Shown piece after piece: positions 401 through 31,090 of a stretch of 64,000 bases of DNA (position 1 is its first letter; the number at the start of each line of letters is the position of its first letter). This stretch comes from Chloroflexota bacterium (GTDB lineage Bacteria; Chloroflexota; Limnocylindria; P2-11E; CF-107): contig VBHP01000031.1 of NCBI GenBank assembly GCA_005881435.1, forward strand, positions 15,242 to 79,241. The letters run 5' to 3'. Below the pieces are notes generated by a model that saw only the letters and a program-made list of their open reading frames with translations, made no database searches and was not told the DNA's origin. The position numbers were made by a program, and so were the translations under genes.

Positions 401-3353
401 TCTCCTCGCGCTCCAGCAGCCAGGTTCCGATCTCGTAGGGCTGGAGCCGCGCCTCGAGCCTGCCGTCCGGCAGCTGCTCCAACGGCGCGGCGGTGCGGAT
501 CACGTCCAGCCCGTTCGCGCCCAGATCGTCCTGGCCCTCGCGCAGATCCGTCGTGCGCAGGATGCGCATCGGGGTCATGAAGCGCGCGCGCGCCGAAGCC
601 TCGGCCGGTGACGGGTTAGCCAGGCGCAGCACCACAGTGTTCGGAGCGTGGCCCGGACGGAGCGCCGAGAGCTCGACAGCGCCGTCGGTCTCGAGCGCGA
701 GGCGCGTGCCGGGCCTGCCGCGCCCCAGGAGCGGCGGCTCGTGAAACTCGCGCGCGCTGCGGGCCGCCGAGGCGAGCGCGGACTCGGACGCGAGCGGGAT
801 CACCGCGTAGCGCATGCTCCAGCGCCCCTGCAATTGCGCCCCTGGCGTCTCCAGCTGCGGTCCGGCATGGCCGCGACGCTCCGGGAGATCGCCGCGCGAG
901 AGAAAGCCGACGCACCGCAGCAGGGTTAGCGCGATCTCCCTACCGTCGCCGAGCACCGCGTACTCCGGCAGGCCATCCGCGGTCACGACGACGCCTCCGA
1001 CGGCGTCCGAGATCGCGACGAAGTCCTGCACGTGCGCGGTGTCCGGCGGCTGCTCGGCCCACCCTGCCTTCGGCGCGATCCGGTTGGGGCGGCGCACCCA
1101 CGCGAATTGCTCGCCGGCGACATGGCTACGCGCGGCACGTCCGGTGGCGAAGATCGCGCGCAGGCGATGGTCGCGCGCACGGTTGTCGATCGTCGTCGTG
1201 ATCTCGACGCGATCGGCGTCGGCGTCCAATCGGATCACCGTCTCGATCCCGAGATCCACGATGCGCTCGTCGCGGGCGCGACGATCCGGGCGCAGCGCGG
1301 CCGGTACCGGAAGCGAGAGTCGCACCGCGACCTCGCCGCGCAGCGGGTGCACGCGCGTCTCACGCTCGCCCCCACGGCCGGCGCTACGGACCGGCGGTCC
1401 GGAATAGGAATAGGTGTATTCGTCGCCGCGGTCTCCCTCGTCGAGCAGCACGTTGTGCGGTCCGGTTCGGCCGCCCGGACCCTCTACATAAAAGGAGCCG
1501 TCCGGCGCGACCTCGACCCGAAGGCGGCCGTTGTCCAGAACGCCCTCCGCCGTCGAACGCACGTCGCTCTCCGGCGCCGCCGCGTCGAGCGCCGCCGCGC
1601 CCAGGCCGTCGAAGCGCGCGAACCGTGGACCCGTGCCGTCAGCGACGACGGCGGCGCGGGGAAAAGCCGTCGACGACCACGCCACCTCGCCGGCGCCGCC
1701 CTCGCCGAGCAGCCTCTCGCGCAGCGCGTCGCCCGTCGACCGCACCGTCGCGAATCGCGCACGCATGTCGATCTCGTGTACGGCGTCGATCGAGCAGCCA
1801 CAGATCGAGTCGTGGGGATGACATTGCAACAGGGTGCGCCACAGCGGCCGGAGCTCCTCGCGCGTCACGCTGCCGGAGAGCGCGGCGAACGGCTCGAGCC
1901 AGCGCAGCAGCAACCGCTCGCAGGCGGCGTTCTCCTGCTTGATCCACATCCGCGTCGAATTCACCGCGCGCAGGATGTGGCGATAGCGGCCCTCGATCAT
2001 CTCCCGCGAGTGCACCGGCAGGGTCATCGGCGGGTACGCCGCGACGGCGTCCTCGAGCGTGCCGATCGTGGTCGCCAGACGCGGGCGCAACTCCTTCGCC
2101 TGGCGCAGCGCCGGCAGGAGCTCGGGTGTGATCGGCGTGTGGTCGGTGCCGACCATCAGCAGCAGCACGTCGCTGTGCGCATAGGGCGTCTCGCGCGCCA
2201 GCAAGCGCGGCAGCTCGCGACGCAGCCGCCGCTGCATCTCCGGATCGGCCTCCTCGACGTGATGACTGTCGCGGATCAGCCACAGCGCGTTGTCGTAGTG
2301 ACCGACGAGGTGTAGCGCCAGCACGCGATCCCCCGACGGGGCTTGCCACTCGAACTCCGAGCCGAGCGCTTCGCCTTCATCGCCGAGACCGCGGGCGAAC
2401 ACGTACGAGCGGTAGCCGAAGCCGCGCAGGATCTGCGGCATCTGCGCCGGATGGCCGAAGGGATCGGCAACGTAGCCGACGCGCATGGCGCGGCCGTGTA
2501 ACGCCGCGAGCCGCAGGCCTTCCTCCATGTTCCGCAGCGTCGATTCGGCGTGCACCAGGATGAGATCGGAGAGCACGTACCAGGGTCCGATGAGCAGTTT
2601 CCCCGCGCGCACCAGCGCGTCGATCCGTGCGGACATGTCCGGCCGATCGCCGAGGTAATCCTCCAGCGCCACGGTTTGGCCGTCGAACGTGAACCGATCG
2701 ACGCCCCCGGGGCGCTCGAGCTCCGCGACGACGCCGTCGACGGCCGCAAGCAGGCGCGGACGGTATCCCGCGACCGTCTCGTACCACTCGCGATCCCAAT
2801 GCGTGTGCGGCACCACGATCGCGCGCCAGGGCACGCGCGTCCGCGCGAAACGAACGAGCTCGACGGCCAGGCGTCCGCAGACGAAACCGATGACCGCGCC
2901 GCCGAGAACGTCGCTCGGATAGTGCACGCCGAAATAGATGCGTTCAATCGCGACGAGTCCGCCGAACCCGTACAGCGGCAGCGACCACCACGGGCGGAAG
3001 GCGGTGAACGCGGCGACGGCCGCGAACGCCCCGGCGACGTCACCGGAGGGGAATGATTTCGTGGACACCGTCGGAATGAGGTACGGCCCGATCTCCGGGA
3101 ACGTCGTGAACGGGCGCGCGCGCGCGAACCCCGGCTTCAGCAGGAAATCGACCAAGACGGTGGCGATGACGAGCGCGGTGATGACGCTCGCGGCGACCCA
3201 CTGGCCGCGTCTGCCGTCGCGCAGCGCGAAGATGGCGAGCGCGATCCAGATCCAATCGAACAGCGTCAGCAGCCAGGTCAGGCCGAAGATGACATCGAAC
3301 GGCAGCGAGCGGAGCGCGATGATCTGGCGCAGGAGCGCTTCGTCGAGGCTCAT
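390..3353 (-). CDS. Fusion protein: N-terminal polytopic PAP2-family phosphatase-like domain + GH38 alpha-mannosidase (MngB / mannosylglycerate-hydrolase-like) domain
   Basis: Start taken at the internal ATG (MSLDEALL) that overlaps the DedA stop (ATGA). PAP2 motifs KPGFARARP, PSGD (variant of PSGH) and ERIYFGVHYPSD, with about 5 TM helices. GH38 signature VPHTHWDREWY and a long GH38 central/C-terminal region follow in the same ORF without a stop. Confidence 0.65.
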   Translation of the reverse strand: MSLDEALLRQIIALRSLPFDVIFGLTWLLTLFDWIWIALAIFALRDGRRGQWVAASVITALVIATVLVDFLLKPGFARARPFTTFPEIGPYLIPTVSTKSFPSGDVAGAFAAVAAFTAFRPWWSLPLYGFGGLVAIERIYFGVHYPSDVLGGAVIGFVCGRLAVELVRFARTRVPWRAIVVPHTHWDREWYETVAGYRPRLLAAVDGVVAELERPGGVDRFTFDGQTVALEDYLGDRPDMSARIDALVRAGKLLIGPWYVLSDLILVHAESTLRNMEEGLRLAALHGRAMRVGYVADPFGHPAQMPQILRGFGYRSYVFARGLGDEGEALGSEFEWQAPSGDRVLALHLVGHYDNALWLIRDSHHVEEADPEMQRRLRRELPRLLARETPYAHSDVLLLMVGTDHTPITPELLPALRQAKELRPRLATTIGTLEDAVAAYPPMTLPVHSREMIEGRYRHILRAVNSTRMWIKQENAACERLLLRWLEPFAALSGSVTREELRPLWRTLLQCHPHDSICGCSIDAVHEIDMRARFATVRSTGDALRERLLGEGGAGEVAWSSTAFPRAAVVADGTGPRFARFDGLGAAALDAAAPESDVRSTAEGVLDNGRLRVEVAPDGSFYVEGPGGRTGPHNVLLDEGDRGDEYTYSYSGPPVRSAGRGGERETRVHPLRGEVAVRLSLPVPAALRPDRRARDERIVDLGIETVIRLDADADRVEITTTIDNRARDHRLRAIFATGRAARSHVAGEQFAWVRRPNRIAPKAGWAEQPPDTAHVQDFVAISDAVGGVVVTADGLPEYAVLGDGREIALTLLRCVGFLSRGDLPERRGHAGPQLETPGAQLQGRWSMRYAVIPLASESALASAARSAREFHEPPLLGRGRPGTRLALETDGAVELSALRPGHAPNTVVLRLANPSPAEASARARFMTPMRILRTTDLREGQDDLGANGLDVIRTAAPLEQLPDGRLEARLQPYEIGTWLLEREEIRT

Positions 3354-3982
3354 CGGCGAACGTGACGCCAGACGAACAGAAGCACGAGGACGAGGATCGC
3401 CGCGGCGATGATGTAATCGAGCCCGCCGAGCGTCTCCCGCACAGCCCGCCAGTTGTCGCCGAGCGCCTTGCCCGCGTACACGAGCGCGATCGTCCACGGC
3501 ACCGCGCCCAGCAGCGAGAAGAGCACGAAGCGCCACAAGGGCATGCGCGCGATCCCGGCCGGGAGCGAAATGAACGTCCGCACCACCGGGAGCAGCCGGG
3601 TGAAGAAGACGGTCGCGTCGCCGTATCGCGCGAACCAGCGCTCGGCCAGCTCGATGTCATGGTGCGAGATCAAGATGTAGCGGCCATAGCGTTCGAGGAG
3701 CGGTCGGCCGCCGGCCGCACCCACGGCGTACGCGATGAGCGATCCGGTGGTGTTGCCTAGCACGCCCGCGACCACGGCGAGCCAGAACTCCCACGGCCCT
3801 CCGGTTAACGGCTCGGGGAGCTGTCGCGCCACGGCCCAGCCGGCAAGCGGGAGCACGAGCTCGCTTGGAAGCGGGATGCAGGCGCTCTCGATGGTCATCG
3901 CCAGCACCAGCCCGGCGTAGCCGATGCTCGTGTACAGCGACTCGAGAAATGGGATGACCAGCGTTTCCAGTGCTTGAAGCAC
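3350..3982 (-). CDS. DedA/VTT-family membrane protein
   Basis: Signature FTRLLPVVRTFISLPAGIARMPLWRFVLFSLLGAVPWT. Stop TGA overlaps the ATG of the downstream PAP2-GH38 gene. Start assigned to GTG 3982; the upstream in-frame extension overlaps the other strand, so the 5' end is uncertain. Confidence 0.8.
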   Translation of the reverse strand: MLQALETLVIPFLESLYTSIGYAGLVLAMTIESACIPLPSELVLPLAGWAVARQLPEPLTGGPWEFWLAVVAGVLGNTTGSLIAYAVGAAGGRPLLERYGRYILISHHDIELAERWFARYGDATVFFTRLLPVVRTFISLPAGIARMPLWRFVLFSLLGAVPWTIALVYAGKALGDNWRAVRETLGGLDYIIAAAILVLVLLFVWRHVRR

Positions 3983-4073
3983 GCGGTCATTCTGGGGCGC
4001 AACCGCAGCGGGTGCGTCGAGGCACGCCACCTGCACGTGCGTTCGGCGATATTTCGCCGATAGGAGTGATGAC

Positions 4074-4340: not shown

Positions 4341-4368
4341 CCGGGTGCGCGGCGGAGAGCCTTAAGCG

Positions 4369-6075
4369 ATGACACAAGCCGAGACACGCCCGCGAGCGGC
4401 GCGCGACAGCACGTTGCAGCAGCGCGGGCGTGAGCTCGGCCGCCTGGCCGAGCGCCGGCTCGCACTCGCGCCACGGGATGCGGCCGCCGCCGAGCGGGCG
4501 CGCCGTCTACGCGATCACGCGCTCGGCTACATCGTGCCCCGTGCCACGGACCTCGACGCTCCGCTGCTGATCCTGTTGCTCGGTCCAACCGGCGCGGGCA
4601 AATCGTCGATCCTGAACACCATCGCCGCGGGTCCGGTAAGCGCCACGGGCGTGGTCCGGCCGACCACGCGCGACGCGATCCTGTACGCCACGGCGGCCGA
4701 CGCCGAGCGGCTACTCGAGAGCGGGCAGCTCGGACGGCTTTCGCGCGGCAGCGTCGGACGCGTGCTGGCACCCGGCGACCGGACCGGCGTCGCGATCGTC
4801 GACGCGCCCGATATCGACTCCGTCGAACGTGCGAACCGCGAGCTCGCGGACGCGTTGATCGAGTCCGCCGACCTCTGCGTGTTCGTCACCACGGCGACGC
4901 GGTATGCGGATCTCGTCCCGTTCGAGGTCCTCCGCCGCGTTCGCGAGCGCGGTCTTCCGCTGGTCGTCGTGATCAACCGGCTGCCGCGCGACGAGCACGA
5001 CCGCGAGGTCGTGGTGGCCGACGCGTCGAGACTCCTGGCGCAGGCGGGCGTCCCGACGGAGCGAATGACCATCGCCCTGGTCGGTGAAGGCGAGTTGGAC
5101 CCGACTGTCGATGGTCTCTCGCGCGAGGCGCTTCGACCGGTACTCGAGCGCATCGACCAGCTCGCCGGCGATCGGGACGAGCGGGCCGCGCTGGCGGCAT
5201 CGACGCTCGAGGCCGCGATCCGCGGTCTGGCGCCATTGGCCCACTCCGTGGCCGACGACCTGGAACATGACGCGCTGGACACGGAGACGCTCCGGCGGAT
5301 CGCTGCCACGACGTACGTCGAGGAGCTGGACGACCTCCTGCGTGCATTACGCGAAGGCGGCGTGCTTCGCGAGGAGATTCTCCGTCAGTGGCACGACTTC
5401 GTGGGCGCCGATCAGATCACGCGGCTGTTCGCCACCGGCTTCGGTCGCTTGCGCGGGATGCTGCTGGTCGCGCTGCGCGGACGTCCGAACTCCCCGGCGC
5501 CGCAGGTCGAGGAGGAGGCCGTCACGGTGCTGGCCGCTCAGGTCGGTCGGTACGCCAACGAGGCCGCGCGCCGGACCGCCGGACGTTGGTCCGAACGCGA
5601 GGATGGCGCCGGACTCGTCGCCACCGAGCCAGGGCTGTGGAGCGCGTCGCCGGATCTCGGGAACGCGGTCCGCGGGGACCTGGACGAATGGCTGCGCTCG
5701 ATCGTCGACGATGTCCGCGCCGCGGGAGACCGTAAACGCACGACGGCACAGATCGCGGCGCTCGGCGTCAACGCGGTCGGCGTCGCCGTCATGCTCGCGG
5801 TCTTCGCGCACACCGCGGGTCTGACCGGCGCCGAGCTCGGCATCGCCGGCGGGACCGCGTTCGTGAACCAGAAGCTCTTAGAGACCATCTTCGGCGAGCG
5901 CGTCATGGAGGAGCTGATCGAGCGTGCCCGCTCACGCCTCGACGCGCTGCTGACCGCGCTCTTCGCCCACGAGCGCGATCGCTTCGATCGCGTCGCCGCC
6001 GCTCCGCAGGACCTGCGCGAGATCGCGTCGTCATTGCGGCGCACCGTCGACGCCTTCGCCGCGGAACGGGCATGA
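4369..6075 (+). CDS. Dynamin-like GTPase family protein (first of a pair)
   Basis: P-loop LLGPTGAGKSSILN, G3 VDAPDID, G4-like NRLP, long helical C-terminal region. ATGA overlap with the next, paralogous GTPase. Confidence 0.6.
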   Translation: MTQAETRPRAARDSTLQQRGRELGRLAERRLALAPRDAAAAERARRLRDHALGYIVPRATDLDAPLLILLLGPTGAGKSSILNTIAAGPVSATGVVRPTTRDAILYATAADAERLLESGQLGRLSRGSVGRVLAPGDRTGVAIVDAPDIDSVERANRELADALIESADLCVFVTTATRYADLVPFEVLRRVRERGLPLVVVINRLPRDEHDREVVVADASRLLAQAGVPTERMTIALVGEGELDPTVDGLSREALRPVLERIDQLAGDRDERAALAASTLEAAIRGLAPLAHSVADDLEHDALDTETLRRIAATTYVEELDDLLRALREGGVLREEILRQWHDFVGADQITRLFATGFGRLRGMLLVALRGRPNSPAPQVEEEAVTVLAAQVGRYANEAARRTAGRWSEREDGAGLVATEPGLWSASPDLGNAVRGDLDEWLRSIVDDVRAAGDRKRTTAQIAALGVNAVGVAVMLAVFAHTAGLTGAELGIAGGTAFVNQKLLETIFGERVMEELIERARSRLDALLTALFAHERDRFDRVAAAPQDLREIASSLRRTVDAFAAERA

Positions 6076-7652
6076 ACGTCGCTCGCTGCCTGGAGCGGCT
6101 CGACGAGGCGGTCGACGCAACGCGAGCGCTGGGATTGCCGGTCGACGACGCGACGGCGGTCTCCGAGCGCGCGCGCACGCGGCTCGGGCTGGGCGGGGAC
6201 GCCTACGTCGTCGCGCTCATCGGCGGCACCGGTGTCGGAAAGTCGTCGCTGCTGAACGCGCTCGCAGGCACCGAGGTCGCCGCGGCCGGCGCGAAGCGCC
6301 CGACGACGGATCAGGCCGTGGCCTGGGTCCCGCGACAGCGGCGCGGCGAGCTCACCTCGGTGCTGGAGTGGCTCGGTGTCGATCGCGTGAGCGAACACGC
6401 CGGCAACGGCATGGCGTCGGTCGCGGTGCTCGACCTCCCAGACCTCGACTCGGTCGCGCGCGAGCACCGCGCCCGGGTCGACCAGCTGCTGCCGCGCATC
6501 GACGCGGTCGCGTGGGTCGTCGATCCCGAGAAGTACAAGGACCTCGTGCTCCACGACACCTACCTGCGGGCATGGTCGCGACGGCTGCCACATCAGGTGG
6601 TCGTGCTGAATCGGACCGACCTCCTCCCCGACGGCTCGGCCACGCGCGTACGCGAGGACCTGCGCGCCGAGCTCGACGACGCCGGCTTGCGCGAGGTGCC
6701 GGTGCTGACGACGCAGGCCCGCCGCGGCGGATCCGGCGTCGAAGAGCTCCGTCGCTGGCTCACCGCTGAAAGCGACGACAAGACCGTGGTGGCCGAGCGC
6801 CTTGCCGCTGACATCCGTGAGGCGATCGGCGACCTCGCCCGCCGCGCCGCCGTCACGGACGGCCTCGCGCCGCCGCTGGTGACGGCCGAGCGACGCGAAG
6901 CCGCCCTGCGCGACATTGCCGGCGCGGCGATCGCGCTCGTCGATCCGCGCGGGTTGGAGGCGCAGGCGGTCGCGGCGACGCGCCTCAGCGCTCGACGCCG
7001 CGGGACCGGTCCGCTCGGTGTGCTCACCAGCGCGCTCTACCGCTGGAGCGGCCGCGCACGAGCGTCGGCAAATCCGGCGACGTATCTGCGCCACTGGCGC
7101 GAGCGCGGGAGCCTCGCGCCCGCGTCGGAGCCCATGCGCGCGCTTGTCGCGTCAGCATTGCCCCCATTGCCTTCGACGCTGCGCCCGGCGGTCGCCGCGC
7201 TGGCCGAGCCGGCGAACATCGAACGCGGCCTGGCGGCCGCGATCGATCGAGCCATCGACGACGAGGCGCGCGACCTGCGCGTACCGGCGAGCGTGCTGTG
7301 GTCCGCGATCGGCGCCGGCCAGTTCGTCGTCGCGGCACTGCTGGTGTTCGCCGCGATCTGGTTCGCATCGCTGTTCGTGCTCGACCATCCGGCGGTCGGA
7401 AGCGTGGCGCTGCCGCTGCTCGGGCCGGTGCCGTCGCCGGTCCTCTTTCTCGCCGGGGTCCTGCTGGCCGGATATGTCCTGACGCTGCTGCTCCGGCTGC
7501 ACGCGGGATGGGTGGCGCGACGCTGGGCGCGCCGCGTGGTGTCGCGGATACGATCCGGCGTCGAGTCGCGCATCCGCGGCTCGGTCTTCCTGCCGCTTGA
7601 CGCGATCGAGGCCGCGCGCTCGCGCCTCGCCGCGGCGATGAAGGACTGCTAG
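6072..7652 (+). CDS. Dynamin-like GTPase family protein (second of a pair; membrane-anchoring hydrophobic hairpin near the C-terminus)
   Basis: P-loop LIGGTGVGKSSLLN, DLPDLD, NRTD (NKxD-like); two TM segments (FVVAALLVFAAIWFASLFVL ... VLFLAGVLLAGYVLTLLL). Confidence 0.6.
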   Translation: MNVARCLERLDEAVDATRALGLPVDDATAVSERARTRLGLGGDAYVVALIGGTGVGKSSLLNALAGTEVAAAGAKRPTTDQAVAWVPRQRRGELTSVLEWLGVDRVSEHAGNGMASVAVLDLPDLDSVAREHRARVDQLLPRIDAVAWVVDPEKYKDLVLHDTYLRAWSRRLPHQVVVLNRTDLLPDGSATRVREDLRAELDDAGLREVPVLTTQARRGGSGVEELRRWLTAESDDKTVVAERLAADIREAIGDLARRAAVTDGLAPPLVTAERREAALRDIAGAAIALVDPRGLEAQAVAATRLSARRRGTGPLGVLTSALYRWSGRARASANPATYLRHWRERGSLAPASEPMRALVASALPPLPSTLRPAVAALAEPANIERGLAAAIDRAIDDEARDLRVPASVLWSAIGAGQFVVAALLVFAAIWFASLFVLDHPAVGSVALPLLGPVPSPVLFLAGVLLAGYVLTLLLRLHAGWVARRWARRVVSRIRSGVESRIRGSVFLPLDAIEAARSRLAAAMKDC

Positions 7653-8575
7653 CGGCTGAAGGCGGTTCGCAGCGCTCGCCCGATGTCGTCGATCGCGCGA
7701 TCGGCGCTGTCGACCTCGCCGGCCATAGGGATGAATCCGTGCACCACGCCCTCATAGCGCCGGCACTCGACCGCTACGCCACTGTCGCGTAGACGTCTGG
7801 CGTAGGCCTCGCCTTCGTCACGCAGCGGATCGAACTCCGCGATCACGATCACCGCCGGGGGGACACGGCTCAGATCGTTCGCCCGCAGCGGCGAGGCATA
7901 TGGATTCGCGCCGTCGGCGACGTCGCGCAGGTAATGGCTCCAGAACCATTGCATCTCGTTCCGCGTGAGCCGGTAGCCCTCGGCGTTCTCGGCGTACGAC
8001 GGGGTATCGAAGGCGTAGTTCAGCACCGGCACCAGCAGGACCTGGAACACGAGCCGCGGACCGCCACGGTCGCGCGCGGCCAGCGCCATGGCCGCAGCCA
8101 GGTTGCCACCGGCGCTCTCGCCGCCCACGGCGATGCGACTGGGGTCGACGTCGAGAGACCGAGCATTCTCGGCGAGCCACTTCGTCACCGCGTAGGACGC
8201 TTCGAGCGCGACGGGAAACGGATGTTCCGGCGCGAGTGGGTAGTCGACCGATACGACCACGCAGCGCGCCGCGTTGGCCAAACGCCGGCACAGCGCATCG
8301 GGAGCATCGAGGTCGCCGAGCACCCATCCGCCGCCGTGCAGATAGACGAGCGCCGGCAGATCAGTCCCGCCCGGTGCGTAGATGCGGACGCCAACGTCCC
8401 CCGCCGCAGTCCGTAGGGTGCGCTCGAAGACTCGAGCAACCGCTGCGCTGGGAGGATGGAGCAGCGCACCACGCTCACGCGAGGCGCGTCTTGCTTCGTC
8501 CGGGCTCATGCGGTCGCGGGCGATCTCCGGCAGCCGTTCGAGCACCCGTTCCACCTGCGGATCGAGGCGTGCCAC
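7649..8575 (-). CDS. Alpha/beta-hydrolase esterase/lipase (HSL family)
   Basis: HGGGW oxyanion motif, GESAGG nucleophile elbow, C-terminal DPLRD/HGF. Confidence 0.8.
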   Translation of the reverse strand: MARLDPQVERVLERLPEIARDRMSPDEARRASRERGALLHPPSAAVARVFERTLRTAAGDVGVRIYAPGGTDLPALVYLHGGGWVLGDLDAPDALCRRLANAARCVVVSVDYPLAPEHPFPVALEASYAVTKWLAENARSLDVDPSRIAVGGESAGGNLAAAMALAARDRGGPRLVFQVLLVPVLNYAFDTPSYAENAEGYRLTRNEMQWFWSHYLRDVADGANPYASPLRANDLSRVPPAVIVIAEFDPLRDEGEAYARRLRDSGVAVECRRYEGVVHGFIPMAGEVDSADRAIDDIGRALRTAFSR

Positions 8576-8617
8576 AGCGGGAGCCTACGCCCTCGGCCGG
8601 TAGTATTCGCGCGCGGA

Positions 8618-9838
8618 ATGCCGACCGAAACCGATCGCACGCTCGCCGAGGCGCTCTCGGGTATCGCGCGCGCGGACGTGATCGTCGGGATCCCGTCGTA
8701 CAACAACGCCAAGACCATCGCGCACGTCGTCGACATGGCGCGTCAGGGATTGCGCCACTCGTTCCCCGCGCTGACCGGCGTCGTCGTCAACTCCGACGGG
8801 GGCAGCGAGGACGGCACGCGCGATGTCGTCACGGAACAGGACACGCCCGAGCTGCGCGTCGTCAGCGGCCGCTACACCGGGCCAAGCGGAAAGGGCAGCG
8901 CCCTGCGTGCCGTGTTCGAAGCGGTGAGGCAGCTCGGCGCTCGCGCCGCCTGCGTCGTCGACAGCGACCTCCGCAGCATCGCCCCGGAGTGGATCGAGCG
9001 GCTGCTACGTCCCGGCATCGATGGTCGCGCCGGGTACGTCACGCCGCTGTACATCCGTCACAAGCACGACGGCACCATCACCAACAACGTCATCTATCCG
9101 GTGGTGCGAGCGCTGTACGGCAAGCGCGTGCGACAGCCGATCGGCGGCGACTTCGGGTTCAGCGCCGACATGGCGCGGCGCTGGCTCGCCGAGGACGTCT
9201 GGGAGACGGACGTGGCCCGCTTCGGCATCGACGTGTTCATGACCACGACGGCCCTCGCGTCCGGCGCGACGGTGATGCAGGCCGCGCTCGGCGCGAAGCT
9301 GCACGATCCCAAGGATCCGGCGCGACACCTCGCGCCGATGTTCACGCAGGTCAGTAGCGCCCTGGTCGACCGGCTCCGGGCGCACCGCGCGTTCTGGTCC
9401 CGAGCGGTCGGATCCGAGCCGCTCGAGACCGAAGGACAAGCGCCGGCGATCGAGCCCGACGATGTTCGCGTCGACCTCGCCGGGCTCGATGCCGCGTTCC
9501 GCCTTGCCAACACGCCCGATCGCGAGCGCTGGTCGGAGATCATCTGCGCCGACGAGCTCGCGACGTTCACGGCGGCGGCCGAAGCCGAGGCGCCGTCGGG
9601 ATGGGACACGGAGCGCGCCTGGGCGCGGATCGTCTACGACGTTCTCGGTTCGTCGATGCGCGACGGCGCGCAGACCGCCGCGAACGTGCGGGCGCTGCTG
9701 CCGCTGTACTTCGGTCGCATCGCGATGCACGTCCGCGCCGCCTCGGGGATGCCGAGCAGCGCCGCGGAGGCGCTCGTGGAGCGTCAGGCGGAAGCGTTCG
9801 AGGCGGAGAAGCCGCATCTGCTGAAGTCGGCGCGATGA
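8618..9838 (+). CDS. GT-A glycosyltransferase resembling GT78 mannosylglycerate synthase / MggS (glycosyl-glycerate synthase-like)
   Basis: Start at the internal ATG 8618, because the upstream part overlaps the esterase. IPSYNN, DGGSEDGT, GKG, and the block CVVDSDLRSIAPEWI, which resembles HFYDADITSFGPDWI of Rhodothermus MGS as recalled from memory. Confidence 0.5.
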   Translation: MPTETDRTLAEALSGIARADVIVGIPSYNNAKTIAHVVDMARQGLRHSFPALTGVVVNSDGGSEDGTRDVVTEQDTPELRVVSGRYTGPSGKGSALRAVFEAVRQLGARAACVVDSDLRSIAPEWIERLLRPGIDGRAGYVTPLYIRHKHDGTITNNVIYPVVRALYGKRVRQPIGGDFGFSADMARRWLAEDVWETDVARFGIDVFMTTTALASGATVMQAALGAKLHDPKDPARHLAPMFTQVSSALVDRLRAHRAFWSRAVGSEPLETEGQAPAIEPDDVRVDLAGLDAAFRLANTPDRERWSEIICADELATFTAAAEAEAPSGWDTERAWARIVYDVLGSSMRDGAQTAANVRALLPLYFGRIAMHVRAASGMPSSAAEALVERQAEAFEAEKPHLLKSAR

Positions 9839-11943
9839 CGGTTTCGCTGAAAGAGGGCGAGGTCGTCCTGATCACCCCGGACGACGGCTCGATCCCGGCG
9901 GACGATCCCGGCGCACACGGCCTCTACTACCACGACATGCGCTTCGTCTCGGTGTTCGAGCTGCGGATCAACGGCGAGCCACCGATGCTGCTGTCAGCGA
10001 ACGGCGACGAGAACTACGTCGCGACCTTCCAGCTCATCAACGACCAGGTCGTGCTCGCCGACGGCTCGAGGCTCCAGCCCCAGTCACTGTCGATCCGCCG
10101 CACGCGGTTCGTTGCCGACGGCTGGCGCGAGCGCATCGGGCTGCTGAACTGTTCGGCGCAGACGGTCACGCTGGAGATCGCGCTGATCGTCGACGCCGAT
10201 TTCCAGGATCTGTTCTCCATCCGCGGATACCACGGCATGGACCTGCCGCCGGTCACGCGAGAGATGCGCGAGGGTGGCGTGAACCTGTGGGCGCGCGGGG
10301 CCGACGGGATCGTCCGCACCACCCGCGTCCGTACCATCCCCGATCCCACCGCCGTCGTCGGACGCGAGCTGCGGTTCACTCGCACGCTCGGGCCGCAGGA
10401 GGTCTTCGCCATGGAGGTGCGGCTCATACCGTACGAAGACGACAAGCCGCCGACCGCGGGACTACGCGACTTCGACGAGGCCATCGAGGCGGTCCGCGAG
10501 AGCTACAAGGGCTTCTTGAAGGACAGCACCCGCGTCGCGACCTCGCGTGAGCGGCTCGACCGCGAGCTGCTCGAGCGCTCGGCCCGCGATGTGCGAGCGC
10601 TGCTCGACTTCGAGCCGACCGGGCCGTATCCGACCGCGGGCATCCCGTGGTACGCGACGCCGTTCGGCCGCGACGGGATCATCGCCGGGCTGCAGACGTT
10701 GTGCTTCAACCCCGACGTGGCCGTCGGCACGTTGCGGCTGCTGGCGCGCTACCAAGGTCGAAAGGTCGATCCCTACACCGAGGAGGAGCCGGGAAAGATC
10801 CTCCACGAGCTGCGGCGCGGCGAGCTGGCACGGCTCGGGCGGGTGCCGCATCGCCCTTACTACGGGACCGTCGACGCGACGCCGCTCTTCGTCTCGCTGC
10901 TGGTCGAGACGGTCCGCTGGCTTGGCGACTGGACGCTGTACCGCGAGCTGCTGCCAAGCGCCGATGCGGCCCTGCGCTGGTGCGACACATTCGGCGACAT
11001 CGACGACGACGGCTTCGTGGAGTACGCCAGCAGCGGTTCCAGCGTCGAGCTCCGCAACAAGGGTTGGAAGGACTCGCAGTCGTCGTTGTCATACCGCGAC
11101 GGCTCATACGCCCAGCTGCCCGCCGCGCTCGTCGAAGTCCAAGCGTACGTGTACCACGCCAAGCGCGGCATGGCCGAGCTGGCCGCGCTCGACGGCGACG
11201 CCGAGCGCGCGGCGCGCCTGCACCGCGAGGCCGAAACGCTACGCGAGCACTTCGAAGACGTCTTCTGGATGCCTGCCGAGCGCTGCTACGCGCAGGCGCT
11301 CGACGCGTCGAAGCGACAGATCGAGGCCGTGACGAGCAATGCCGGTCACGCGCTGTGGGCCGGCATAGCCTCGCCCGAACGCGGCGCGCTCGTCGCAGCG
11401 CGGCTGATGGAGCGCGACATGTTCAGCGGCTGGGGCGTGCGCACGCTCTCATCGGGCTATCCGACGTACAACCCCATGAGCTACCACAACGGCTCGGTGT
11501 GGCCACATGACAACTCCATGATCGCCGCGGGTCTGGCGGCATACGGCGAGCACGATCGCGCGAATCAGATCATCAGCGCCATGGTCGACGCCGGCCTCCG
11601 CTTCCCGAACGCGCGGCTGCCGGAGCTCTTCTGCGGGTTCTTCCGCGACCAGCGATTCTCCAACCGTCCGGCCGACTACCTCGTGTCGTGCATCCCGCAA
11701 GCGTGGTCGGCCGCGGCGCCGCTGCTGTTCCTTCAGACCATGCTCGGCCTGCGGCCGGAGCTCGCGACGCGCGAGCTTCACGTCGATCCGGTCCTGCCGC
11801 AATGGCTCGAGCGTGTCGACGTCGTCGGCCTTCGCGCTCTCGGCCGCCGCTATACGTTTCGCGTCCGACGGACGCGCCGCGGTGTCCGCGTCAGCGGAGA
11901 CCTTCGCCGGCCACTGGGCACGCGCGTTGCAGCTACCGCCTGA
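9835..11943 (+). CDS. Glycogen-debranching-enzyme-like (GDE_N_bact + amylo-alpha-1,6-glucosidase / six-hairpin GH) glycoside hydrolase
   Basis: ATGA overlap with the upstream GT; GDE-type motifs PWYATPFGRDGII and GWKDSQ; (alpha/alpha)6-type C-terminal region; 702 aa. Confidence 0.65.
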   Translation: MTVSLKEGEVVLITPDDGSIPADDPGAHGLYYHDMRFVSVFELRINGEPPMLLSANGDENYVATFQLINDQVVLADGSRLQPQSLSIRRTRFVADGWRERIGLLNCSAQTVTLEIALIVDADFQDLFSIRGYHGMDLPPVTREMREGGVNLWARGADGIVRTTRVRTIPDPTAVVGRELRFTRTLGPQEVFAMEVRLIPYEDDKPPTAGLRDFDEAIEAVRESYKGFLKDSTRVATSRERLDRELLERSARDVRALLDFEPTGPYPTAGIPWYATPFGRDGIIAGLQTLCFNPDVAVGTLRLLARYQGRKVDPYTEEEPGKILHELRRGELARLGRVPHRPYYGTVDATPLFVSLLVETVRWLGDWTLYRELLPSADAALRWCDTFGDIDDDGFVEYASSGSSVELRNKGWKDSQSSLSYRDGSYAQLPAALVEVQAYVYHAKRGMAELAALDGDAERAARLHREAETLREHFEDVFWMPAERCYAQALDASKRQIEAVTSNAGHALWAGIASPERGALVAARLMERDMFSGWGVRTLSSGYPTYNPMSYHNGSVWPHDNSMIAAGLAAYGEHDRANQIISAMVDAGLRFPNARLPELFCGFFRDQRFSNRPADYLVSCIPQAWSAAAPLLFLQTMLGLRPELATRELHVDPVLPQWLERVDVVGLRALGRRYTFRVRRTRRGVRVSGDLRRPLGTRVAATA

Positions 11944-12042
11944 GCACGCTCGCCTTCTCGCTCGGTGTCCGTTCGGAGCGTGAGTCCCTCGGCCGCAAAT
12001 GGTGCTGAAATAAGGTCGTTCGGAGGTCGGAGCAGGAGAAGC

Positions 12043-13254
12043 ATGCCGCGCGTACTGCTGCTGCACTACACCTTCCCCGGCATCGTCGGCGGTGTCGAGA
12101 TGGTGCTCGCGCGTCATGCGGCCGCGCTGCGCGATGCCGGCGCCGACGTCGTCATCGCCGCCGCGGGCGTGCGCTCGGCGCGCATCCCGGAGCTGGACTC
12201 GCGCCATCCCATGGTCGAACGCGTCTTCCACGAGCTAGCCGCGGGCGAGGTCAGTGAACGACTCGAGCATCTGCGCGAACGGATCCGCGAACGGCTGGCG
12301 CCGGAGATCCTCCGCAGCGAGCGCGTGGTCGCGCACAACGTCCTCACGCTGCATAAGAATCCCGCGCTCGCGCTGGCGCTCCGCGACCTCGCACGCGGCA
12401 TGACGCCGGGCAAGCTCGTGGTGTGGGTGCACGATCTGGCGTGGACCGACCGGCGCTATGCGCGGCAGCGCCACGACGGGGAACCCTGGGACACGTTCGC
12501 TCGTCCGATCCCTGGCGCCCGCTACGTGGCCGTGTCGGAGGCGCGTCGAGACGAGACCGCGCAGCTGCTCGGCATCCCCGACGATGCCATCGCGATCGTG
12601 CCGAACGGCATCGATCTCGCCGAGGTGCTCCGACTTTCGTCGACGACACGCGCACTCGTCGACCGGCTCGGCCTCGGCGGCGCGACGGTGCTGCTGCTGC
12701 CGGCACGACTGACCCGGCGAAAGCGCGTCGAGGTGGCCATCGACGCCGCGGCGGCGCTGTCGCGTCGTGGCCGCCGCATCCGCTTGCTCGTGACCGGTGG
12801 TCCCGGACCGCACAACGCGGACAACGTCCGGTATCTCGAGGAGCTGCGTGGCCGCGTGACGGCCTCGCGGGGTGCGGCGGTGCTCCTGCACGACGCCGTG
12901 CCCGGACCGCTGTCGCATCGCGCGGTGATGGAGCTGCTGTCGCTGGCCGATGCCCTGGTCTTCCCCTCCGAGCAGGAGGGCTTCGGCATCCCGTTGCTGG
13001 AAGCCGCGGCGCTGCGGGTGCCGATCATCGCAAGCGACATCCCGGCGCATCGCGCGCTCGTCGGCGAGCAGGCGACCTACGTGGCGCCGGATGCCGACGC
13101 GGATCAGCTCGCCGCAGCCATCGAGCACGCGCTCGAAAGCGACGCCGCTGCCCGCCGCCGGGCTGTGGCGCGGGAGCACGAGTGGTCCCGCATCCTGGCC
13201 GATCGGGTCGTGCCGCTGGTCCTCGGCGAACGCTCGGGCACGCGGAGCGCGTGA
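12043..13254 (+). CDS. GT4-family glycosyltransferase (MggA-like candidate)
   Basis: Internal ATG 12043 preceded by AGGAGAAG Shine-Dalgarno. GT4 C-terminal EX7E-type region PSEQEGFGIPLLEAAALRVPIIASD. Confidence 0.75.
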   Translation: MPRVLLLHYTFPGIVGGVEMVLARHAAALRDAGADVVIAAAGVRSARIPELDSRHPMVERVFHELAAGEVSERLEHLRERIRERLAPEILRSERVVAHNVLTLHKNPALALALRDLARGMTPGKLVVWVHDLAWTDRRYARQRHDGEPWDTFARPIPGARYVAVSEARRDETAQLLGIPDDAIAIVPNGIDLAEVLRLSSTTRALVDRLGLGGATVLLLPARLTRRKRVEVAIDAAAALSRRGRRIRLLVTGGPGPHNADNVRYLEELRGRVTASRGAAVLLHDAVPGPLSHRAVMELLSLADALVFPSEQEGFGIPLLEAAALRVPIIASDIPAHRALVGEQATYVAPDADADQLAAAIEHALESDAAARRRAVAREHEWSRILADRVVPLVLGERSGTRSA

Positions 13255-15065
13255 TGCGCGTGCTCGTCGCCATCGGCGACATCGATCGGGACCGCGGCCT
13301 CGTCGACGTGGCGCGGGCGCTCGGCGACGGCGGCGATCTGGTCCTCGCCTCGGTCGTGGAGATACCCGGATCACGATCGCTGGCCTCGGCGCAGCCGCGC
13401 GCCCGAACGCGCCGGCTGCAGCTGCAATCGTTCACCAAACGCGCCGGCATCACCGCGGGCGTGGTGGTGAAGGTCGCGCGCAAGACGCTCGACGCCATCG
13501 CCGAGGCGGTCGAGCACGAGCAGGCCAAGCTTCTGATCATCGGTTGGCCGAGCGCATCACCGAGCGAGGCGCTCAACGAGTTCCTGTCGCATCCACCCTG
13601 CGACGTCGCCGTCGTGGTCGGCGATGTCGGCGGCGCGCGCCGGATCCTCGTGCCGGTGCGCGGCGGACGCTACGCGCAGCTCGCGGTGGCGATCGCCTCG
13701 GCCATCGCCGCGCATAACGACGGCAACGTCACGCTGCTGCACGCGACCGAGCCCGGACGCGATGCCCCACGAACGCGGAGCGCGCTGTATGACGTGCTCG
13801 GCGCGGCGCAGCACTCGCGCATCGGACAGCTTGTCAGCGCCGTCGGTCCGGCCGCGGAAGTGATCCGCTCACAGCTGCCGGACCACGACCTCGTGGTGCT
13901 CGGTGCAACCGCGCGCGACGGCGTGAGCTCCTCGTTCGGACCCATCGCCGAGGCGCTGGCGGCGTCGGGGACGCCGCTCCTGGTGGTGCGCACCCGCACG
14001 CCGGTCGCCTCGCGCATCTTTTCGGCGCGCTCGACGCTGCCGGCTGACCGACGCGAACGCAGCGGTTACATCTCCGAGCTGGTGGACAAGTGGTTCGCCG
14101 AGAACACCTTCGTCTCCTCCGAGTTCGCCGACCTCGAGCGCCTCGTCGATCTCAAGCGCCGCCAGGGCGTGACCATTTCGGTGGGACTGCCGGCATTGAA
14201 CGAAGAGGAGACGATCGGCGACGTGGTGTACACGATGCGCAAGCGGCTGATGGGCCGCTATCAACTGGTCGACGAGATCGTCGTCATCGACTCCGGCTCG
14301 AGCGACCGGACCCGCGAGATCGCGAAGGGCGAAGGCGTGCCCGTCTACGTGCATCAGGAGATCGTGCCCGAACTGGGCGCGAACTCCGGCAAGGGCGAGG
14401 CGCTGTGGAAGAGCCTGTTCGTGCTGCGCGGCGACATCGTCTGTTGGGTCGATACGGACATCCGCAACATCCACCCCAAGTTCGTGTACGGCATCGTCGG
14501 CCCACTTCTGGTCCATCCGCGGCTGCAGTATGTGAAGGCGTTCTATCAGCGACCGCTCAACGTCGGAGAGACGATGCAGGCAACCGGCGGCGGACGAGTG
14601 ACGGAGCTGACCGCGCGGCCGATCCTCAATCTCTTTTTTCCGGAGCTCTCCGGCATGATCCAGCCGCTCTCCGGCGAATACGGTGGGCGGCGCGCGCTGC
14701 TCGAGCAACTGCCGTTCTTCACCGGTTACGGCGTCGAGACCGGCCTGCTCATCGACGTCCTGCAGCGCGGCGGACTCGACGCCATCGCGCAAACGGACAT
14801 GAAGCAGCGGATCCATCGCAACCAGTCGCTGCTGGCGCTGTCGAAGATGTCGTTCGCCCTGCTCCAAGTGGTGCTGAAGCGCGTCGGCGAATCGACCGGT
14901 CGAGCCATCTGGGAAGAAGCGAACTCGTCGCTGAAGCTCATCCGCGGCGACCGCGGTCGCTATCGGCTCGACGTCCAGGAGATCGTCGAGGGCGAGCGGC
15001 CGCCGCTGGTCAGCGTGCCGCAATATCGCATTCGCCGGAATTCCTCGTTGGTCGGGGTCGGTTAG
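13255..15065 (+). CDS. gpgS: Tandem universal-stress-protein (UspA) domains fused to glucosyl-3-phosphoglycerate synthase (GpgS, GT81)
   Basis: ATG immediately follows the GT4 stop. The N-terminal 280 aa carry two USP-like alpha/beta repeats. The C-terminal half matches GpgS motifs: TISVGLPALNEEETI, VIDSGSSDRT, GKGEALWKSL, ATGGGRVTEL, QPLSGEY, IAQTDMKQRIHRNQ. Confidence 0.75.
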
Positions 15066-15153
15066 CGCCGCTCTAATGCATTCGGGCTAGGTAGCGGCCA
15101 CCCATTGGTGTGATGACGCACTCGCTGCCGGCGTCGAGACTGGTCGCACAGCT

Positions 15154-16326
15154 ATGGCCGGGGAGCGGATCCGAGTCCTGATCGTCGACGATCACGACGC
15201 CACGGTGCAGACCGTGACGACGATGCTTCAACTCGACCCCGAGTTCGAAGTGATCGGGGTCGCCGGCGACGGGAAGACCGGCGTCGACCAAGTCGCGGCG
15301 CTGCACCCTGACGTCGTGCTGATGGACATCAACATGCCGGTGATGGACGGCATCAGCGCGACCGAGATCATCGTCCAGCAGCACCCCGGCACCGCGGTGG
15401 TGATGCTGTCGGCGCAGACCGATCACGAATACCTCCGGCGCTCGATGAACGTCGGCGCCAGCTACTTCCTGGCGAAGCCGGTCTCGAGCGATGAGATCTA
15501 TAACGCCATCCGGCGCGCGAACGAGGTCAACCGACTCCGTTCGCAGCGCTACGCCGCTCCGCCCCCGGAGCCCGAGCCGACCGCGCCAGCCGGTACGGCG
15601 ATCGCGTTCTTCTCCCCGAGCGGCGGCGTCGGGCGCACGACGATCGTGACCAACCTCGCCGTCGCGCTGCAGAAGATCGCCCCGACCGCGATCGTCGACC
15701 TGAGCCTCCCGTTCGGCGACATCGCGGTGCTGCTGAACGCGCCGCCGAAAGCGAAGTCCATCGGCGACCTCGTCGGCAAGTTCGCCACGCTTCGCGGGGC
15801 CGACGTCGACCAGGTGCTGTTCACGCATCGCTCTGGCGTTCGCGCGCTGCTCGCGCCGCCCTCGCCGGAGATGGAGGAGCGCATCGGACCCGACGATGTG
15901 CGCAAGCTGCTCACCGTGATCCGGCAACAGTTCCGCTTCGTGATCGTGGACACCTGGGCCTCGTACGGCGAGACGATGCTCGCCGTCCTCGAGAGCGCCG
16001 ACCGCATCGTCCTTCCCTTCACCCTGGAGCTGACGAGCGTCAAGAACGCACGGGTCTTCATCGAGGTAATGCGCAAGGTCGGGCTGGATCCCAAGGTCTC
16101 GCTGCTGGTGAATCGCGTGGATCAGCCCAACGGGCTGAAGCTATCCGAGATCGAAGGCGGGCTCGGCCGCAAGTCGTCGTACCAGCTATCGACGGACGAG
16201 GCGTCGCTGCGTCTGGCCATGAACCGCGGGCTGCCCGTCGTCGACACGCACCCGGACAGCAAGCTCGCCAGAGAGTTCGCCGCCGTCGCCAAGGCAGTCG
16301 CAGCCGAGCCGGCCCTCACGCGTTAG
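15154..16326 (+). CDS. Response-regulator receiver domain fused to a CpaE/TadZ-like (MinD/ParA-fold) ATPase domain
   Basis: Receiver with DD, phospho-acceptor D (LMDINMP) and K (LAKP). Deviant Walker A FFSPSGGVGRTT, typical of TadZ/CpaE. Confidence 0.65.
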   Translation: MAGERIRVLIVDDHDATVQTVTTMLQLDPEFEVIGVAGDGKTGVDQVAALHPDVVLMDINMPVMDGISATEIIVQQHPGTAVVMLSAQTDHEYLRRSMNVGASYFLAKPVSSDEIYNAIRRANEVNRLRSQRYAAPPPEPEPTAPAGTAIAFFSPSGGVGRTTIVTNLAVALQKIAPTAIVDLSLPFGDIAVLLNAPPKAKSIGDLVGKFATLRGADVDQVLFTHRSGVRALLAPPSPEMEERIGPDDVRKLLTVIRQQFRFVIVDTWASYGETMLAVLESADRIVLPFTLELTSVKNARVFIEVMRKVGLDPKVSLLVNRVDQPNGLKLSEIEGGLGRKSSYQLSTDEASLRLAMNRGLPVVDTHPDSKLAREFAAVAKAVAAEPALTR

Positions 16327-16330
16327 CGAA

Positions 16331-17539
16331 TCACTCCAGCTTCCGGATCGCCGGCAGCGCCAGGCCGGCCAGCCCGAACAGCGCGATGACCGCGCCTCCC
16401 GCGACGAAGACCGGCGATGCTCCGAACGCGGCAATCATCGCGCCGCCCACGACCGGGGCGATCGGCGCCAGCAGCGAGCCGCCGAACATATCGACGCTCG
16501 AGACTCGTCCGAGGTACTCGCGCGGCACATAGCGCTGCAGCGCGTTGACCCACGGCACCTCGAAGCCGATGAGACAGGTGCCGCTAAGCGCGGCGAAGGC
16601 CAGCGCGACGAGCAGGTTCGGCGACACACCGATCCCCGCCAGCGCCAGCCCGAACAGCGCCGTATACAGGTACAGCACCACGCCGACGCGGCGGTAACGG
16701 AACTGGCCGACGATGAACGCACCGAGGAGCTCGCCGAACCCCGTCGCGCCCGTCACCAGGCCGAAGACCGTGGCATCTCCCGCGAACGTGTCGCGCACCA
16801 GGATCGGCAGTCCGGTCCAGGCCGCGATGTAGGCGGCGACGACGAAGGCGAATCCGAAGATCGTCACCCACAGCCACGTGAGCGAGAACGTGAACCGTAG
16901 GCCCGCGCCGATCTGCGACAGGATCGATCCGCTCACCTGGCCGGCCGTCGTCGTCGTCGCGCGCATGGCGTAGACCGCGCCGAAGCTGACGAAGAACGTC
17001 AGCGCGTTGAACGCGAACGCGGCCGCGGGTCCGGCGGTGCCGATGAGCAGGCCGGCGAAGACGGGACCGACGAGCAGACCAGCCTGCCGCGAGAACGAGC
17101 GCAGCACGTTCCCTTGCAGCAGGACCGCCGCCGGTACGACCTCGGGGATGATCGCCTGCATCGCCGGAAAGAAGAAAGAGAAGGTCGCGCCGTTGATGGC
17201 CGCGGCGACGTAGAGATGCTCGACGCGCAGCAGGCCGGCGGCGGAAAGCCCCGCGACTGCGGTGAAGACGGCGCCGTTCGCGATGTCGCTGGCCAGGATC
17301 ACGCGGCGTCGCGGCAGCCGGTCGACCACCGCGCCGCCGAGCAACAGGAAGATCAGGCCCGCGGCGGCCAGGATTCCCGAGACGATGCCGATCTGGACCG
17401 GCGAGTTCGTCAGCAGCAGCACCTGCCACGGCAGCGCGATCTGGTTCACGAAGTTGCCGACGGCGGAGAAGGTCTGCCCGCTCCACAGCAGCGCGAAATC
17501 GCGGTTGCGCAGCGGCTCGACCAGACGCGGGACCCGCAC
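16331..17539 (-). CDS. MFS transporter (EntS/YbdA-like efflux family)
   Basis: 12 predicted TM helices. The upstream Arg-rich in-frame extension is rejected; start assigned to a GTG that overlaps the HAD stop (TAGTG). Confidence 0.7.
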   Translation of the reverse strand: MRVPRLVEPLRNRDFALLWSGQTFSAVGNFVNQIALPWQVLLLTNSPVQIGIVSGILAAAGLIFLLLGGAVVDRLPRRRVILASDIANGAVFTAVAGLSAAGLLRVEHLYVAAAINGATFSFFFPAMQAIIPEVVPAAVLLQGNVLRSFSRQAGLLVGPVFAGLLIGTAGPAAAFAFNALTFFVSFGAVYAMRATTTTAGQVSGSILSQIGAGLRFTFSLTWLWVTIFGFAFVVAAYIAAWTGLPILVRDTFAGDATVFGLVTGATGFGELLGAFIVGQFRYRRVGVVLYLYTALFGLALAGIGVSPNLLVALAFAALSGTCLIGFEVPWVNALQRYVPREYLGRVSSVDMFGGSLLAPIAPVVGGAMIAAFGASPVFVAGGAVIALFGLAGLALPAIRKLE

Positions 17540-30010: not shown

Positions 30011-30016
30011 GCGCCG

Positions 30017-31057: not shown

Positions 31058-31090
31058 GAGGTGGCGTCCGGCTTGCACCGTCGCCAGGCC

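Follow-up and report, generated by a model that had tools for sequence, protein, structure and literature searches.

Glucosyl-3-phosphoglycerate synthases (GpgS) of mycobacteria (M. tuberculosis Rv1208 and the enzymes of M. hassiacum and M. avium; CAZy family GT81) are proteins of approximately 325 aa, which feed the synthesis of methylglucose lipopolysaccharide and the accumulation of glucosylglycerate. Here, we describe a gene from a Chloroflexota bacterium of the Limnocylindria lineage (assembly GCA_005881435.1), whose product joins the same catalytic domain to an N-terminal tandem of universal stress protein (USP) domains. The gene was found in a 64,000-nt stretch of contig VBHP01000031.1 (hereinafter, the window, to which all coordinates refer), at positions 13254..15065 of the forward strand; it encodes 603 aa plus the stop codon, and was delineated by its open reading frame (ORF) and translation, and by Pfam and NCBIfam matches. 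The fusion shares with mycobacterial GpgS 41–47% identity over the catalytic domain, the DxD motif, the Lys-Asp-Glu network, the PLSGE loop, the His metal ligand, and the Val-Thr pair binding 3-phosphoglycerate. Unlike it, the mycobacterial enzymes have no N-terminal USP part, as had been noted in the initial annotation of this DNA: their solved chains (326–344 aa) align only to aa 279–546 of the fusion. Moreover, Arg101 of M. tuberculosis GpgS, involved in base discrimination, corresponds to His367 in the fusion. The best PDB match of the catalytic domain is mannosyl-3-phosphoglycerate synthase (MpgS) of Rubrobacter xylanophilus (3f1y, 3kia, 3o3p; also GT81; 387 aa in the PDB chain), with a target-normalised TM score from Foldseek (TMt) of 0.89–0.91. 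This enzyme also lacks USP domains, was solved as a GDP-mannose-binding enzyme, and carries PLAGE, whereas the fusion has the USP part and PLSGE.

USP domains are very common, and the biochemical role of most of them is poorly defined. The tandem USPs Rv2623 (3cis, 2jax), TTHA0350 (3ab7, 3ab8), and UspE (5cb0, 4r2j) have two alpha/beta domains per chain, as does the fusion (TMt 0.55–0.73), but they are free-standing, while the USP module of the fusion is covalently attached to an enzyme. The domains of Rv2623 carry the nucleotide-binding motif G-x2-G-x9-G-S; the fusion has lost it, and its second USP domain has R-G-G instead of D-G-S. In KdpD and TeaD, as in the fusion, a USP is linked to an osmotic-stress or compatible-solute protein. 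The single USP domain of KdpD belongs to a sensor kinase and has a cyclic di-AMP (c-di-AMP) motif of its own, missing from the fusions. TeaD, associated with the ectoine TRAP transporter, binds ATP as a free-standing protein and is attached to no enzyme; its structure (3hgm) is a weak profile match to the USP module of the fusion (E-value 2e-8). Finally, Petrotoga mobilis and Rhodopirellula baltica have a mannosylglucosylglycerate pathway in which GpgS is paired with the GT4-family glycosyltransferase MggA, sometimes encoded beside gpgS in consecutive genes, and with MggB, the R. baltica GpgS using ADP-glucose (PMC3736172). The window resembles this arrangement in that a GT4 gene and the fusion are coupled and their pairing is conserved, and differs from it, as no MggB-type phosphatase is encoded near the fusion within the 64 kb.

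The fusion ORF runs uninterrupted from the ATG at 13254 to the stop codon at 15063–15065, with no internal stops or frameshifts; the frame read from 13255 is full of stops, and 13254 is the true start. The initial annotation, in which the ATG directly follows the GT4 stop, gave the start one base late, as 13255. The start codon shares one base with the TGA of the GT4 gene (TGATG) and has GGAG 6 nt upstream, which fits translational coupling of the two genes. The product is 100% identical to NCBI TMD60701.1, automatically named "GpgS" only. A frameshift or stop between the USP and GT81 parts, named in the initial annotation as what would overturn the fusion, is not seen in the ORF, and the identical 603-aa protein is present on four independent contigs. 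As a side observation, G+C content is 72.3% in the USP-coding part (13254–14018) and 64.5% in the GT81-coding part (14019–15065), while G+C at third codon positions is similar (0.88 and 0.86, respectively), so the gap comes from the amino-acid composition of the Ala/Arg/Gly-rich USP module and not from a foreign origin.

Two UspA-like repeats had been proposed at the N-terminus from the sequence, with a Pfam and GT81 domain scan suggested as a check, and the scan bears this out. Pfam Usp (PF00582) matches in two stretches (E-value 7e-13, 49.8 bits against the cutoff of 24; the best stretch is aa 129–246), Pfam Glycos_transf_2 matches at aa 309–444, and the protein passes the GpgS equivalog model NF010496 of NCBIfam with 379.7 bits against the cutoff of 262, aa 277–589 covering positions 5–306 of the 307 in the model. 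The first USP domain (USP1; aa 1–122, 13254..13619 on the forward strand) was delimited by secondary structure in the AlphaFold model (predicted local distance difference test, pLDDT, of about 90), alignments, and motif counts, and the second one (USP2; aa 129–247, 13638..13994, forward strand), by the Pfam stretch, profile alignment to Rv2623, and column statistics. They are followed by an 18-aa linker (aa 248–265, 13995..14048, forward strand), recognized by the alignment and by low model confidence (pLDDT below 50 at aa 251–258) and carrying an LPxDRxxRS stretch conserved within Limnocylindria, and by the GT81 glucosyl-3-phosphoglycerate synthase domain (aa 266–603, 14049..15062, forward strand), assigned by NF010496, a phmmer search of PDB sequences, and Foldseek.

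The structure was modeled twice. The first AlphaFold run, with a 23-sequence alignment, gave a usable USP part (pLDDT about 80–90) and a GT domain with pLDDT below 50; it was replaced by a second run with 105 sequences, to which more distant fusions had been added. The second model has a mean pLDDT of 88.2 and a predicted TM score (pTM) of 0.85, with two alpha/beta USP units and the GT81 domain starting at about aa 266, where pLDDT exceeds 90 over most of the domain. This GT domain superimposes on solved GT81 structures (3o3p, 3kia, 4y6n, 4dec, 7pdo) with TMt of 0.85–0.91 and root-mean-square deviation of 2.0–2.7 Å. The USP module of the first model retrieved the tandem USPs TTHA0350 (TMt up to 0.73) and UspE, and Rv2623 was matched by both models at TMt of about 0.6. 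Similarly, a profile of the N-terminal module built from 31 diverse fusions has Rv2623 (2jax/3cis) as its best match (E-value 2e-14), followed by 3s3t, 3loq, TTHA0350, TeaD, and UspE.

In the phmmer search, the R. xylanophilus MpgS (3f1y) scores best, with an E-value of 2e-71, followed by GpgS of M. avium, M. hassiacum, and M. tuberculosis at about 1e-65 (down to 6e-65). Functional residues of the M. tuberculosis enzyme (PMC2581804) were mapped by hand, using the offset from the alignment with the M. avium homologue. The DxD motif binding the metal and the donor, Asp134-Ser135-Asp136, corresponds to D400-T401-D402 (14451..14459, forward strand); Pro50/Leu52/Glu54, to P313/L315/E317; Ser81, to S347; Lys114, to K380; Tyr229/Glu232, to Y492/E495; Arg256/His258/Asn260, to R519/H521/N523; and Met269, to M532. 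Val186 and Thr187, which contact the carboxylate of the acceptor 3-phosphoglycerate (PMC2581804), correspond to V449/T450 inside an invariant GGGRVTEL stretch. The PLSGE loop, whose Ser210 is proposed to select glucose over mannose donors (PMC2581804), is P471-L-S-G-E475 (14664..14678, forward strand). The claim that every hallmark GpgS motif is present therefore holds for nearly all mapped residues, and fails for Arg101, replaced by H367, the sole difference among them. The mapped catalytic residues are invariant or nearly so in the 105 aligned fusions; DxD, K380, and E495, forming the Asp134-Lys114-Glu232 network, and H521, the His258 metal ligand, are invariant. The catalytic domain is intact, with NDP-glucose as the probable donor and 3-phosphoglycerate as the probable acceptor.

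The architecture is widespread. More than 120 clusters of homologues, at 56–87% identity and full coverage, have both Pfam domains. In a library clustered at 50% identity, 692 clusters were retrieved at E ≤ 1e-30, and among the best 150 the USP module is present in about 50, with identities as low as 36%; a profile search of 8000 scored candidates yielded at least 7941 further matches at E ≤ 1e-20, the best 120 of which all have both Pfam domains. We also surveyed contigs from one genome per species, and at least 596 stretches (596 of 600 matched), mostly from Chloroflexota, encode relatives. The best 80 of these, examined as loci (L008–L087) along with seven extra Limnocylindria loci (L001–L007), all encode essentially full-length proteins and include Limnocylindria, Anaerolineales, Thermoflexales, and Candidatus Chloroploca, as well as some metagenome-assembled genomes labelled Deltaproteobacteria, Binatia, Acidobacteriota, or Dormibacterota. 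The ratio of nonsynonymous to synonymous substitution rates is 0.07–0.27 in the USP part and 0.04–0.20 in the GT part, so both halves are under purifying selection. Hence, the fusion of a tandem USP module with a complete GT81 GpgS is genuine, conserved, and selected, and GpgS normally takes this form in large soil and sediment lineages of Chloroflexota that are mostly uncultured (Limnocylindria, Anaerolineae).

Conservation of the USP module is strongest at the loops that line the pocket of USP2. Its family signature is L-V-P-V-R136-G137-G138 together with G217-A-T-A-x8-G229-P230, the glycine loop reading G217-A-T-[A/G]-x8/9-G229-P across the family. The profile alignment places R-G-G, in the loop between beta1 and alpha1 (codons 13659..13667, forward strand), on D-G-S of the V-G-V-D-G-S stretch in Rv2623, and it is a candidate ligand (phosphate) site. 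For motif counts we used 120 close homologues with 37 distant representatives, and a separate set of 236 fusions from two homologue searches, which shares the 120 close homologues. R-G-G (as xRGG) is found in 231 of the 236 fusions; in 50 diverse fusions, R is conserved in 46, the first G in 46, and the second G in 49; and in the 105-sequence alignment G137 is invariant and R136 and G138 are conserved in at least 90%. USP1 keeps the generic PPCD strand of USPs at aa 114–117.

The fusion is the last gene of a four-gene same-strand cluster, both in the window and in related Limnocylindria contigs. The first gene (8618..9838, forward strand) encodes a 406-aa GT-A glycosyltransferase (GT2; Pfam, NCBIfam), a distant paralogue of GpgS and mannosylglycerate synthase, with 56 bits to GpgS, a weak or faint PF21969 match on its orthologues, and no sequence match in PDB. 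It is followed by a 702-aa glycoside hydrolase with GDE_N_bis and MGH1-like domains (9835..11943, forward strand; Pfam and Limnocylindria synteny), whose ATG overlaps the GT2 stop codon (ATGA) and which matches 7vma, a PDB deposit named as a putative glycogen debranching enzyme of the archaeal type (E-value 4e-100). The third gene (12043..13254, forward strand) encodes the GT4 glycosyltransferase of 403 aa, recognized by Pfam and identical to TMD60700.1 with the start at 12043; its PDB matches, Tll1590, PimA, and MshA, are weak and generic for GT4. In about 65 of the 80 loci, including those from Anaerolineales, Thermoflexales, and Chloroploca, and in all seven extra Limnocylindria loci, the gene immediately preceding the fusion is GT4; the stop-start overlap, TGATG in the window, is ATGA in L004 and L006. 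Among the 80 loci, GT2 and the hydrolase are confined to those of the Limnocylindria type, and in three loci from metagenome-assembled genomes GT2, not GT4, takes the upstream position. A promoter and terminator scan of 7600–16400 was uninformative.

Some observations concern the genes flanking the cluster. Divergent from it and upstream are a 987-aa fusion of a PAP2 phosphatase with a GH38 alpha-mannosidase (390–3353, reverse strand) and a DedA/VTT membrane protein (3350–4036, reverse strand), both syntenic with the operon in L001–L007; apart from PAP2, there is no phosphatase-like domain near the operon, and among NCBIfam models the GH38 part is matched best by the mannosylglycerate hydrolase MngB, at 378 bits against the cutoff of 1138. 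Directly downstream of the fusion is a gene for a 390-aa protein (15154–16326, forward strand) in which a MinD/ParA-type P-loop ATPase is joined to a response-regulator receiver domain. The 87%-identical locus L008 likewise has this gene downstream; the more distant loci of Limnocylindria have panC and an MFS transporter there instead. In L001 (ENA scaffold_19, the same population) the hydrolase is split in two and GT4 is truncated to 242 aa (L001 positions 6718–8826 and 9273–10001, compared with 9835–13254 of the window); both are intact in the window and in L002, where coordinates 5' of the fusion are shifted by 21 nt relative to the window, and the L001 defects are probably assembly indels. 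Farther away, two adjacent genes for large GTPases (4366–6075 and about 6072–7652, forward strand; 568 and 526 aa), with precomputed Pfam matches to MMR_HSR1 (weak on the first gene) and faintly to Dynamin_N, look like a bacterial dynamin-like pair; a 656-aa protein (54826–56796, reverse strand) strongly matches the animal haem peroxidase family (PF03098, E-value 9e-104), unusual in bacteria; and a Ku-domain protein of non-homologous end joining (31058–31909, forward strand) adjoins a galactokinase-like GHMP kinase (30011–31057).

The partners of GpgS in this cluster are also found fused to it elsewhere, which confirms that they are functionally linked. In proteins P0166 and P0161 GpgS is preceded by a GT4 domain that is 39% identical over the full length to GT4 of the window, P0161 (1383 aa) having the architecture GT4-GpgS-GH13 with an alpha-amylase family domain at the end. 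P0130 (1061 aa) combines GT2, 44% identical to GT2 of the window, with a tandem USP and GpgS; P0173 is GT2-GpgS, and P0151, GpgS-GT2, the identity of fused GT2 homologues to GT2 of the window being 35–44% in these three proteins. P0184 links GpgS to a phosphatase of the haloacid dehalogenase (HAD) superfamily (Hydrolase_3). We also note P0197, a GT4-GpgS protein with a weak GT4 match, and the GpgS-GT4 order among the fusions (proteins P0161, P0166, P0197, P0222, P0184). The GT81 catalytic domain is often fused to other enzymes of the pathway. The conservation of GT4 beside the fusion across classes, along with fusion of both partner glycosyltransferases to GpgS in other organisms, suggests a multi-glycosyltransferase glycosyl-glycerate pathway rather than plain glucosylglycerate synthesis. 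The earlier assignment of the protein to the committed step of glycosyl-glycerate synthesis is reasonable, with the amendment that the context points to this longer pathway.

The explanation we favor, and consider somewhat better than an even bet as a whole, is that a GT81 GpgS has been permanently joined to an N-terminal tandem-USP module with a regulatory or assembly function, its product being extended by GT4 and, where present, GT2. The tandem USP would fold as an intramolecular pseudo-dimer, similar to Rv2623 and TTHA0350, and would serve as the regulatory or assembly module of the synthase. The conserved USP2 pocket (R-G-G, G-A, G-P) would lie at the site where USPs bind nucleotide phosphates and would most likely accept an anionic phosphate-bearing small molecule, not necessarily ATP. 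Occupancy of the pocket might then tune the activity or the oligomeric state of GpgS, the first enzyme of the glycosyl-glycerate pathway. GT4, translationally coupled to the fusion, would extend glucosyl-3-phosphoglycerate, and so would GT2 in Limnocylindria. The product would be a di- or oligo-glycosyl glycerate, made by a route comparable to that of GpgS plus MggA to mannosylglucosylglycerate, and the glycoside hydrolase of the operon may recycle this product. The regulatory role of the USP module is a reasonable inference, and gating by a ligand is plausible.

Several points weigh against this explanation. The sole hint of an interface between the USP and GT domains is the pTM of the second model. 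The only NCBIfam model related to GT4 of the window is MggS (NF041101), which it matches at 56 bits against the cutoff of 640. No phosphatase gene of the GpgP or MpgP type was found within the 64-kb window, whose only HAD protein is of the haloacid-dehalogenase type II-like kind and in other loci stands beside genes of CoA biosynthesis. The loop proposed to discriminate between donors is polymorphic, with QPLSGE in 183 of the 236 fusions and QPLAGE, the form shared with the mannose-using Rubrobacter enzyme, in 53, and the donor sugar may vary between clades of the family. Finally, as the canonical nucleotide motif is missing, a ligand-free structural role of the USP module is equally compatible with the data.

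The latter is the main and a serious rival to the ligand-binding view. The tandem USP could be a dimerization or scaffold hub, joining GpgS with GT4 and GT2 in a metabolon without sensing any small molecule, and we regard this as possible, though less likely than not. The degenerate ATP motif in both USP domains speaks for it, as do the dimers of pseudo-dimers formed by tandem USPs (PMC3673472) and the presence of USP-like C-terminal domains of cation-chloride cotransporters among the structural matches; furthermore, GT4 adjacency is conserved, and in P0130 the USP tandem is inserted between GT2 and GpgS like a connecting hub. However, the concentration of conserved USP positions in the pocket loops (R136-G-G, G217-A, G229) is more typical of a ligand site, and the USP-free GT4-GpgS (P0166) and GT2-GpgS (P0173) proteins demonstrate that USP is not needed to join these enzymes. 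A more elaborate and rather doubtful proposal combines both functions: the USP module would not sense nucleotides, its R-G-G pocket would bind another phosphorylated metabolite, e.g., 3-phosphoglycerate or a pathway intermediate, and it would also nucleate a GT2-GT4-GpgS assembly making an undescribed di- or oligo-glycosyl glycerate in Chloroflexota.

The initial annotation had taken the fusion to imply direct gating of GpgS by a stress nucleotide, as USP domains typically bind ATP/AMP or c-di-AMP. On this view the USP domains would be canonical sensors of ATP, AMP, cAMP, or c-di-AMP. We consider this unlikely, and among the functional hypotheses it is the least supported. The fold is indeed that of the ATP-binding tandem USPs Rv2623 and TTHA0350, and USP2 retains remnants of the glycine loop, with G217 and G229 conserved in at least 90% of the alignment. 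The ATP-binding motif G-x2-G-x9-G-[ST], whose presence had been left to be checked, is nevertheless missing from both USP domains of the window protein. It is found in none of the 120 close homologues, in one of the 37 distant representatives, and in seven of the 236 fusions, being absent from the other 229; in six of these seven, Anaerolineae-like members, the full motif is in USP1. Most Limnocylindria have GWRRPGWDxLGTT at the corresponding USP1 loop, and in the subclade of the window protein the loop is degenerate and shortened by a further three-residue deletion (GWPSASP---SEAL), losing G-[ST]. The Asp at the end of beta1 in Rv2623 (D-G-S) is reportedly important for ATP binding, as seen by mutagenesis; in USP2 of the fusion it is replaced by Arg, and G-P stands for G-[ST], so that the Pro after the last Gly removes a backbone NH. 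The USP domain of S. aureus KdpD is said to bind c-di-AMP through the motif SxS-x20-FTAxY, and no match to it (regular expression S.S.{18,22}FTA.Y) was found in the N-termini of the 236 fusions. Gating by ATP, AMP, or c-di-AMP thus finds no support in the motifs. Still, a degenerate motif does not keep the C-terminal domain of TTHA0350 from binding ATP (PMC3673472), and therefore canonical nucleotide binding by the fusion is better called unlikely than excluded.

For the catalytic half, the alternative is that the domain is an MpgS or a dual MpgS/GpgS enzyme, and that the operon makes solutes of the mannosyl-glycerate type. The R. xylanophilus MpgS is the best PDB match by both sequence and structure, the neighbors include the MGH1-like hydrolase and GT2 resembling MGS_GT, and the divergent GH38 gene has MngB as its best, below-cutoff match. 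On the other side, the protein passes the GpgS equivalog model, and its loop is PLSGE with Ser473, as in mycobacterial GpgS, the form proposed to exclude mannose (PMC2581804), while the Rubrobacter enzyme itself has PLAGE at this position; altogether, an MpgS function is improbable. Lastly, it is very unlikely that the fusion is only apparent, arising from a sequencing or assembly error or from an internal start normally yielding a stand-alone GpgS, given the four independent contigs, the recurrence of the full-length architecture in the 80 genome loci examined and in each of the 240 best clusters listed, purifying selection on the USP part, and the confident model along the whole chain, and we rejected internal initiation as unsupported, since its only candidates, in-frame GTG codons at V244, V245, and V277, have no Shine-Dalgarno-like sequence upstream, as opposed to GGAG ahead of the annotated ATG.

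We found no publication on a USP-GpgS fusion in the literature on GpgS or glucosylglycerate together with USP, Chloroflexi, or Limnocylindria, and a structural review of the USP family names kinase, permease, and USP-USP fusions, while the term "glycosyl" occurs nowhere in it. In public databases these proteins are automatically named either GpgS or "UspA family protein", and anyone relying on such names will not see the architecture. The fusion is a solid, widespread, and uncharacterized domain architecture rather than a new kind of system.

The enzyme to which the tandem USP is permanently attached in this architecture has a simple established assay and many crystal structures, and what the module does to activity, oligomeric state, and response to ligands is therefore directly measurable. 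Were the doubtful proposal of a non-nucleotide pocket combined with glycosyltransferase assembly true, a USP domain would for the first time have a defined biochemical function, that of an allosteric or assembly subunit in a metabolic enzyme. The fusion, as the usual GpgS of these soil and sediment Chloroflexota, also bears on their regulation of glycosyl-glycerate solutes under drying, salt stress, or nitrogen limitation. Chloroflexota are among the most abundant soil phyla. The conserved GT4 partner and the fusions observed elsewhere suggest that the pathway ends in a more complex product than glucosylglycerate, and the gene described here points to an unexplored glycosyl-glycerate pathway in these abundant soil bacteria.

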